A stretch of 64,000 bases of DNA from Raja brachyura (lineage: Eukaryota), in the NCBI GenBank assembly GCA_963514005.1, contig OY740826.1, forward strand, positions 2,480,001-2,544,000, read 5' to 3'. Of this stretch, positions 8,878-11,424 are shown in pieces. Below the pieces are notes generated by a model, which saw only the letters and a list, made by a program, of their open reading frames with translations, did no database searches and was not told the DNA's origin. The translations under genes and the position numbers were made by a program. Position 1 is the first letter of the stretch. Every line of letters starts with the position of its first letter.

Positions 8878-9100
8878 ATATTCCAGTCGACATCGCTCAG
8901 TGCATCCTGCAGCATGGCCTCTGGATGGTCAGACCACCGCTTTATGTCCCTCGTCACTGCCGCTTCCCGTACTATCCGTTCTTTATACTCCGGCAGCAGA
9001 TAAATGGCAGCGTGGTCAGATTTCCCAAAAGGAGGGAGAGAAACGGCCTTGTAGCCTTCCCTGAACGGCGTGTAGCAGTGGTCCAAAGCTCTCCCCCCCC
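8878..9100 (-). mobile_element. Rex1/Babar LINE fragment
   Basis: LDHCYTPFREGYKAVSLPPFGKSDHAAIYLLPEYK...WS...LQDALSDVDW (end of the APE domain). Confidence 0.8.
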
Positions 9101-9156
9101 TGGTGACTCCAGCACTTTGTACCTATTGAAGGCAGTGAAGGCTTGTATTTACTTAC

Positions 9157-9228
9157 CAAGAGAAAACATGAAGGGGTAAATCAAATCCACGAGCTTCTGA
9201 AAGGTATAAACGGTAGTCTCTGTATAGA
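9157..9228 (-). CDS. IZUMO/SPACA6/TMEM95-like gene, exon 2 (72 nt, phase 1-1)
   Basis: ctctctcttccattag| ... CTTG|gtaagt. Encodes (V)YTETTVYTFQKLVDLIYPFMFSL, in phase with the exon 1 donor. Confidence 0.6.
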
Positions 9229-9559
9229 CTAATGGAAGAGAGAGAGAGGGACAATGCTGATAAAGCCGGGAGCCGTGGGGTTATCTGAACACAATTAGCT
9301 TCTTCCCCACTAAACCCAAACACGTCCACTCTCTCCAGCACATGCTGACTATTCCCAGGGTACAAATGTCTGCTTAATAACCCGATGCTCCCTTCCTCAC
9401 CGCCCCTCCCTCCCTCCGCTATCCATCCCCCTCCCTCTCCCCATCCCTCCCAACCTACCCTCTCTCTCACTCTTCCTCCCTCCCCCCCACTCTCTCCCTC
9501 CTTCCTCTCTCCCTCCCTCACTCCCTCCCTCCCTCCCCCCCCCCCCCCCCCCCTCCTAC

Positions 9560-9937
9560 CCATTTTGAAGTCCTTGGAGTAAGTGATAACCGGGTCCAGC
9601 TGAGTGGAACATTCGTCCTCAGAAGCCGCGATCAGACGCGGTTGACAAAAATGCTGGAGAAACTCAGCGGGTGAGGCAGCATCTATGGAGCGAAGGAATA
9701 GGTGACGTCGCCTACTCCTTTGTTGCATAGATGCTGCCTCACCCGTTGAGTTTCTCCAGCATGTTTGTTTACCTTTGATTTTTCCAGCATCTGCAGTTCT
9801 TTCTTAAACATCAGACAGCGGTTCATCAGGTCGAGGAACTTGGACCAGAGCCGGCGGTCGCAGTTCACACAAGCGCAGCCCCTGTGAGCCAACACGGCGA
9901 GGAGGAGAAACACAGAAGCCAGATTATTCTGGGACAT
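9560..9937 (-). pseudogene. IZUMO/SPACA6/TMEM95-like gene, exon 1 interrupted by a 166-bp insertion (pseudogene or splice-rescued)
   Basis: ATG at 9937 (aagATG). Removing the insertion and one TSD copy gives MSQNNLASVFLLLAVLAHRGCACVNCDRRLWSKFLDLMNRCLIAASEDECSTQLDPVITYSKDFKM G|gtagga: a signal peptide followed by CxxC. Confidence 0.6.
9644..9809. mobile_element. Penelope-derived palindromic insertion with TSD
   Basis: Near-perfect inverted repeat centred on GACGTC, from the same family as other Penelope ends in the window. Flanked by ATCAGAC-GCGGTT (9631-9643) and ATCAGACAGCGGTT (9810-9823). Confidence 0.8.
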
Positions 9938-10244
9938 CTTGACCTCGGCGCTGGCTGAAAAACCTTCTCGCCTTGTGGGCGACATCGTCCGAGAACATCC
10001 CCGACGTCAACAAAGGTCTCCAGGATGTCCCGTCACAAACACCAACCCACGCCCCGACACAAACATTGGAGACACAGAGTGCTGGAGTAACTCAGCGGGA
10101 CAGGCAGCATCTCTGGAGAACACGGATAGGGAGAGGGAAGGGGGGGGGGGGGGGGGAGAGAGAGGGAGGGAGGGAGGGAGGGAGAGAGGGATGAGAGGAA
10201 AGGGCAGAGGGAAGGAGGATGGGAGAGGGGGAGGAAGGGAGGGG

Positions 10245-10545
10245 CGGTGAGGAGGGGAGCATCGGGTTATTACACAGACATTTGTACCCTGGGAATAGTC
10301 AGGATGTGCTGGAGAGAGTGGACGTGTTTGGGTTTAGTGGGGAAGAAGCTAATTGTGTTCAGATAAGCTCACGGCTCCCGTCTTCATCAGCATCGACTGT
10401 CTCTCTCTCTCGCTCTCTCACTCCCTCCCTTCCATTAGTCTATAGAGACACTATGGTTTATACCTTTCAGAACCTCATGGATTTGATTTCATGTTTTCAC
10501 TTGGTAAGTAAATACAAGCCTTCAATGCCTTCAATCGGTACAAAG
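10245..10545 (+). pseudogene. Inverted duplicate of IZUMO-like intron 1/exon 2 (7-nt deletion in exon)
   Basis: Reverse-complement match to about 9115-9410; exon at 10439-10503 is frameshifted. Confidence 0.75.
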
Positions 10546-11049
10546 TGCTGGAGTAACTCAGCGGGTCAGGCAGCATCTCTGAACTGGGGTGGTGAGAGGG
10601 AGGGAGGAATAGAGGGAAGGAGGGAGAGAGAGAAGGAGAATGGAAGGGAGAGAGGGAGGAAGGGAGGGGGACAGTGGGAGTAGAGGGGGTGTGGGTGAGG
10701 GAGGGAAGGAGAGAGGGAGTGAGGAGAGAGAGAGAGAGAAGGAGGGACAGAGGAAGAGATTTATTGTGAGTGGGACGTTAGATTTGGAGGGAGAGAGAAG
10801 GGAGGGATGGAGGGAGGGTCGGTGAGGAGTGGGGTCAACAGGTTATTAAACAGACATTTATCAGACAACAGACAAAGACGATAGGGATGAGGAGAGAGAG
10901 GAAGGGAGAGAGTGAGAGAGGGAGGGAGAGAGTGAGAGAGGGAGAGCAAGAGAGAGGGGGGAGGGGAGAGGGAGTGATGGAGAGAGGGAGGAGGGAGCGA
11001 GTGAGGTTGGGATGGGGGAGAGGGAAGGTGGATGGGAGGGAGGGGGGGA

Positions 11050-11350
11050 GCGGTGAGGAGGGGAGCATCGGGTTATTACACAGACGTTTGTACCCTGGGA
11101 ATAGTCAGGATATGCTGGAGAGAGTGGACGTGTTTGGGTTTAGTGGGGAAGAAGCTAATTGTGTTCGCATGACCCCATGGTTCCCGTCTTTATCAGCATT
11201 GACTCTGTCTCTCTCTCTCTTCCTCTCTTGCATTAATCTATACAGAGACTATGGTTTATACCTTCCAGAAGCTCATGGATTTGATTGACCCCTTCATGTT
11301 TTCACTTGGTAAGTACATACAAGCCTTCACTGCATTCAATAGGTACAAAG
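11050..11350 (+). pseudogene. Second inverted duplicate of IZUMO-like intron 1/exon 2 (acceptor AG->AA)
   Basis: Exon frame intact (YTETMVYTFQKLMDLIDPFMFSL) with gtaagt donor, but the acceptor reads cattaa. Confidence 0.75.
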
Positions 11351-11424
11351 TGCTGGAGTAACTCAGCGGGACAGGCAACATCTCTGGAAGAACAGGTGAT
11401 GTTACAGAAGGGTCCCAACTCGAC

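Follow-up and report, generated by a model that had tools for sequence, protein, structure and literature searches.

Within the window, the 64,000-nt stretch of Raja brachyura DNA analysed here (contig C50), we identified what is very probably a Penelope-like fold-back stub in a truncated, likely dead two-exon duplicate of an IZUMO/TMEM95-like gene, with the in-frame GT-AG segment inside the stub being a by-product. A sequence-only reading of this DNA had proposed that a Penelope-derived element gave rise to an intron that rescued the gene. The first half of that proposal, a Penelope-like insertion in a coding exon, is retained, and the second is not: the copy has no exons 3 onward, a sister copy is frameshifted, and other, unrelated copies of the element also show a splice-like pair that leaves an in-frame remainder. 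Because intron-like signals are also present in those other copies, ordinary debris in a dead gene copy is most likely, rather than a gene-rescuing intron.

The insertion interrupts host exon 1 (9560..10070, minus strand; in-frame ATGs at 9985 and 9937, 5' end not defined), which encodes a signal peptide, the first CxxC motif and two further cysteines. Its 166-nt body (9644..9809, plus strand) is flanked by a target-site duplication, with the gene-5' copy (9810..9823, minus strand, 14 nt) intact in the window and one base shorter in sister copy L003, and the gene-3' copy (9631..9643, minus strand, 13 nt) one base shorter in all three inserted copies. Together, the body and the duplicated target site give a net insertion of 179 nt. 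Searching the species' own genome with the exon revealed six places, comprising three inserted copies on C50 (L001, L002, which is the window copy, and L003) and three uninserted ones (L004 on C1482, L005 and L006 on C51). The three uninserted paralogs prove the insertion, and the 14/13-nt duplication bears out the earlier description of a transposon in a coding exon. A contig from a relative also lacks the insertion (joint 9630-9810).

A look-up for RNA runs containing the inserted stretch itself listed none, a blank that carries no weight on expression. We compared the locus with contigs from sequencing runs, four of them guessed to be RNA and four DNA. One contig skipped 9631-9809 and joined exon 2 in three of the four RNA-guessed runs (all from one study, organism A), which shows the relative's spliced form without the insertion and speaks to the uninserted type only; the fourth run (X5, organism B) covered the repeat only. 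Among the DNA runs, organism D carried the window type with 0 differences over 9815-10070. Contigs of organism E extended 24 nt into the insertion, a length below the 31-letter rule of the alignment, suggesting that the insertion and its frame are old enough for this organism to have them too. Over 9810-10070, the L005 type was seen in run X19 and faintly in X22 among the rows listed.

The inserted body consists of two unequal arms. The long arm (9707..9809, plus strand) is the element's terminal-repeat end, in sense orientation for the element and antisense to the gene, and begins with the triplet that comes after a hammerhead-like core in other copies; loose ends of contigs from both RNA-guessed and DNA runs continue from 9708 into this core. 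The short inverted arm (9644..9706, minus strand, 63 nt) is the source of the acceptor-like AG. As a hairpin, 9640-9706 and 9707-9773 are 87% complementary with no loop and a folding energy of -111 kcal/mol (z = -13.9), and none of 200 shuffled sequences was equally stable. The objection, raised alongside the original proposal, that the putative intron is a near-perfect hairpin is therefore well founded.

Several lines of evidence suggest that the element, which is very abundant, is Penelope-like. Longer copies continue before the arm start into the hammerhead-like core, itself preceded by the end of an open reading frame (ORF), and the motif together with the insert's arm or a related arm was found in 23 copies within 415 kb of local sequence. 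This motif, in which any cleavage is putative, was defined by a custom pattern, and Rfam gave no hammerhead match, with 0 hits at gathering score in the window and only below-threshold generic hairpins in three loci. A GIY-YIG domain (PF01541) was matched in one of five ORF pieces scanned, at L129 of a related subfamily, with E = 1.5e-4 and 22.4 bits, just under the cut-off of 22.6. Two copies of the insert's own subfamily encode the same C-terminal peptide 112-117 nt before the hammerhead. Thus, the Penelope-like origin first suggested for the insertion is supported by the hammerhead-like motif directly before the arm start in other copies and by the GIY-YIG-like ORF upstream in the related subfamily. 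Elsewhere in the window (44149-44397, minus strand), the end of a Penelope-like endonuclease ORF lies 200 nt before a hammerhead-like motif, and a first look genome-wide gave about 100,000 candidates.

Penelope-like EN+ insertions are described as having an adjacent inverted 5'-truncated copy and a one-sided tail of 30-40 bp (Craig et al. 2021, PMC8557442), and minimal hammerheads occur in Penelope-like terminal repeats (Cervera and De la Pena 2014, PMC4209133). An inverted 5'-truncated copy with a one-sided tail is present at our locus, and 34 further exact fold points occur in the genome. Like these elements, the window stub has an inverted truncated arm beside a complete end, with about 37-40 nt unpaired on one side, while longer copies have the hammerhead-like core and related copies the GIY-YIG-like ORF upstream. 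Unlike them, the stub lacks both the hammerhead core (the fold lies at the next triplet) and an ORF, and is situated in a coding exon of a gene fragment. A single fold-back point (window 9706-9707 and L076-L109), the triplet after the hammerhead-like core, is common to at least 35 insertions, and several of them have target duplications of 14-16 nt. Their arms often diverge unevenly from the family majority, and two templates may have been used.

The putative intron (9654..9772, minus strand) is a 119-nt GT-AG segment that lies for nearly its whole length within the predicted stem. Its donor GT is at 9772 and its acceptor AG ends at 9654, both in phase 0; taking out the 119 nt leaves 60 extra nt and a frame open to the end of exon 1, and the unspliced frame reaches a stop at 9685-9683. 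On recomputation these coordinates, the phase, the remainder and the open frame were all the same as in the sequence-only reading. The frame does depend on the base lost from one target copy, as had been noticed, since an intact 14-nt second copy would leave 61 nt. Splicing would stretch a Cys-Cys spacing of 8 residues by 20, with one added cysteine. No indel was found in this spacing in P0001, P0002, P0005 and P0006, the four homologs that hold the segment among six aligned rows, and the concern first voiced about 20 added residues between conserved cysteines is upheld.

To place these features in context, we used an exact 22-nt fold-point pattern and fetched all 34 other genomic copies that it matched, treating them as controls irrespective of genes or exons. 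A donor and an acceptor were paired at matching places in 11 of the 34 controls and lay exactly 119 nt apart in 6 of these 11. Seven controls were scorable, meaning that target duplication, donor and acceptor could all be called (the other 27 could not be scored), with remainders of 55, 60, 75, 62, 64, 57 and 185 nt, although three of the seven duplications are short or doubtful. Three of the seven remainders are multiples of three, and two of the three phases of the 37-nt remnant are stop-free; from these fractions we estimate that an in-frame, stop-free pseudo-intron arises in about a fifth of long-armed antisense insertions. The in-frame intron is not beyond chance, and the GT-AG pair is built into the fold-back form of the element.

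A proposed sequence of events could produce this pattern. Target-primed reverse transcription would have run along the terminal repeat as far as the hammerhead triplet and then turned back at the fold point or switched template, yielding the inverted arm. In antisense orientation, AAG|GT would always be present in the long arm, about 66 nt ahead of the fold point, with a pyrimidine run and CAG in the inverted arm about 53 nt past it, so that any long-armed copy would mimic a 119-nt intron. The remainder would comprise 37 nt, the arm end and the target duplication, and its length would be divisible by three in about a third of cases. At this locus, the loss of one base in the target duplication made it so.

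An unlikely alternative is that the upstream region kept by the truncated or dead copy still drives its transcription and that the 119 nt are occasionally spliced out, forming a cryptic intron that serves no selected purpose. Consistent with this idea, the window copy and the fuller paralog L007 have the upstream region in common, the AG is preceded at about 19 nt by a branch-like motif, and the donor fits 7 of 9 positions of the consensus (splice-site strength was judged by eye against the usual consensus). The +4 base of the donor is private to the window, differing from 22 of 22 aligned control arms, and the change goes toward the usual splice consensus. However, the branch region and the acceptor would be paired in the -111 kcal/mol stem, and another AG occurs 10 nt before the acceptor. 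The joint 9653-9773 was absent among the joints listed (15 of 37 for the RNA-guessed runs and 15 of 82 for the DNA runs), a weak negative because these runs represent another species' RNA or DNA.

We next turn to the host gene. The uninserted exon retrieved P0001, a protein of 265 residues from a 956-nt Logan contig, and the shark proteins P0002, P0005, P0006 and P0008, whose only source name is 'uncharacterized'. The intact relatives P0001, P0005 and P0006 carry two CxxC motifs, a signal peptide and a single membrane helix but no Ig domain, and four helices and a two-strand hinge are predicted for them. The CxxC pair is present in P0001, P0002, P0005 and P0006, and the window copy has one CxxC. 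By language-model features of the Atlas, P0006 (0.95; 215 of 256) and P0002 (0.90) resemble IZUMO3 clusters, and the values for TMEM95 were 0.89 and 0.87. On these features, and without a Pfam family match, we call the host an IZUMO/TMEM95-like gene of cartilaginous fishes. No Pfam family scored above cut-off when the exon pieces, P0001 and the six aligned homologs were scanned, and a PDB sequence search returned two chance matches only. A full-length model was of low confidence (pLDDT 42), and Foldseek with this model returned nothing at E<=0.001; its helix-helix-helix-helix-strand-strand order fits the bundle and hinge of the IST superfamily. P0003 and P0004 were dropped as unrelated repeats.

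The IST superfamily consists of IZUMO1, SPACA6 and TMEM95, and also IZUMO2-4 and TEX51 (PMC12615630). Like its members, P0001, P0005 and P0006 combine a signal peptide with paired CxxC motifs and a membrane helix, and their four predicted helices and putative two-strand hinge would match as well. Unlike them, they have no Pfam IZUMO or TMEM95 match, and the window copy encodes the first CxxC and part of the bundle only. By analogy with the family description in PMC12615630, the host is likely a sperm-protein gene. P0001, P0002, P0005, P0006, P0007 and P0008 form an unnamed cartilaginous-fish family with no Pfam match that resembles IZUMO3/TMEM95 by language-model features. In catshark records, exon 2 is alternatively included (P0002 versus P0005).

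The window copy consists of exons 1 and 2 only. Exon 2 (9157..9229, minus strand), placed by contig alignment, is open and has AG and GT borders. Likeness to the fuller paralog L007 then stops about 50 nt into intron 2, at 9096..9106, inside another element fragment. On C1482, L007 has exons 1-4, all open and correctly ordered, ahead of the contig end, with exons 3-4 located 2.1-2.4 kb past exon 2. In contrast, blastn (word 7, E<=1e-3) returned 0 matches to exons 3 and 4 across an unbroken span of 304,500 bases on C50 (2,350,001-2,654,500), against 8 for exon 1 and 9 for exon 2, and a 23-nt exon-3 pattern (<=2 mismatches) gave 0 matches on the whole of C50 versus 12 genome-wide. Because read-through past exon 2 meets a stop after two codons of intron 2, full splicing would give a predicted product of about 112 residues, missing six of ten ectodomain cysteines and the membrane anchor. 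A weak CxxC-like match at C50 2,473,144-2,473,251 (E 0.05) was dropped, as it crosses exon borders of the real gene. Upstream of exon 1 lie two inverted copies of the exon-2 segment, one of them decayed (10125..10581, plus strand) and a second at 10904..11370 (plus strand). Inverted exon-2 segments are likewise present upstream of exon 1 in L007 (4254-4325 and 1302-1355), one with an unchanged exon-2 frame.

Could the missing exons reflect an assembly artefact, such that the window copy is a real gene whose exons 3 onward were lost in a gap or misplaced? A 200-N gap does lie 54 kb downstream, and L004-type variants over 9810-10070 were not among the rows listed for the four DNA runs, where contigs show presence, not absence. 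Exons 5 onward, highly conserved from ray to shark, were yet not found in the whole assembly with two protein queries, one degenerate pattern and tblastn over 22 loci, although failure to match with these queries is not absence. They remained unmatched across the assembly, and thus no complete gene copy was located; the best copy, on C1482, stops 1.7 kb past exon 4 at the contig end. Nevertheless, contigs from two of the four independent DNA runs span the breakpoint past exon 2 and continue about 30 or more letters beyond it (X20, 9060-9310; X23, 9071-9248), while the pieces listed for X19 and X22 reach too little past it. In addition, the three copies on C50 differ from one another by 2-3% and by private variants, and the relative's spliced contig matches the uninserted type. 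We therefore consider an artefact extremely improbable.

The insertion-bearing unit was tripled in tandem on C50 after the insertion had occurred. In sister L003, the base lost from the gene-5' target copy causes a frameshift and a stop before the donor, making splicing irrelevant; the frame is kept in two of the three inserted copies. All three have the exon-1 donor GTAGGA versus GTGAGA in L004 and L005. Tandem segmental duplications with 93-98% identity span the window and its flanks (C50 2,470,001-2,654,500), and locus L013 contains one additional, incomplete copy of the latter half of exon 1, at 2,562,601-2,562,686 on C50.

These duplicates bear on a further reading, that of a selected intron gain in which splicing would remove the insert, so that the two-exon copy would encode a novel secreted peptide, IZUMO-like and about 112 residues long, or be joined to further downstream exons. 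In its favour, two of the three inserted copies keep the frame, the insertion is likely common to organism E and the window differs from L004 by 5 silent and 7 replacement changes, giving a pN/pS of 0.38, on differences too few to show neutrality. The donor has changed for the better, the acceptor arm is unchanged and the 37-nt remnant that would become exonic has a single private change, a silent one. Against it stand the frameshift in L003, the missing cysteines and membrane anchor, and five amino-acid changes private to the window lineage, all five of which fall in columns invariant among P0001, P0005 and P0006. Control copies show the same features without selection, and we give this reading very little credence. 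The distribution of arm differences had looked like a sign of selection, as the donor-side arm has all 8 of them (binomial p 0.008-0.016) and the acceptor-side arm has none. This sign was weakened by the controls, in which 2 of 19 hairpins are equally lopsided (8 v 1 and 15 v 1) and the long arm is more diverged overall (86 versus 63 differences).

Introners, which are transposon-derived spliceosomal introns, can carry both splice sites, and those of Aureococcus leave 12 nt, or four residues (Gozashti et al. 2022, PMC9860276), while non-LTR retrotransposons account for about 5% of classified Introner cases (Gozashti et al. 2025, PMC12130899). Like Introners, the window element has both splice-like sites, GT-AG and derived from the element, and would leave in-frame residues. 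Unlike them, 60 nt would stay behind, a single locus rather than an intron family is concerned, the host is truncated and the intron is putative. Exons 3-4 are missing around the copy and a sister is frameshifted; we do not file the element as an Introner because the host gene is not otherwise intact and the intron is putative only. The word Penelope is absent from the main texts of PMC9860276 and PMC12130899, a retrozyme preprint (10.64898/2026.07.22.740005) held nothing relevant on sharks and rays, and a literature search at the level of listings turned up no vertebrate exon reported to contain a Penelope-derived intron.

As most likely read, the locus is of small significance, a further example of a Penelope-like fold-back stub within a fragment of a gene. 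It does carry a caution: because of how they are built, palindromic copies of this element look like in-frame introns. If splicing did occur, here or at other exonic copies, it would represent a retroelement-made intron in a vertebrate coding exon and a route to intron gain, in a group for which Introner surveys report little recent gain (PMC9860276, PMC12130899), gains are few and three cases of intronization have been described in human (PMC12124190). The boldest version would make the antisense fold-back form a latent intron generator in cartilaginous fishes, with this locus a live, testis-spliced case after the one-base loss and donor improvement, giving a secreted IZUMO-like peptide; we regard this as very improbable.

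The unnamed IZUMO/TMEM95-like family of sharks and rays, together with its amplified fragments, may be the more useful lead. Fragments of exons 3-4, mostly without exon 1, are amplified on C51, C25, C296, C609, C674, C1361 and C1482; the exon-3 pattern accounts for the 12 genome-wide matches given above, and a DNA search gives more fragments. Their spread looks like an ampliconic region, and sex linkage of the amplified fragments would be our guess.
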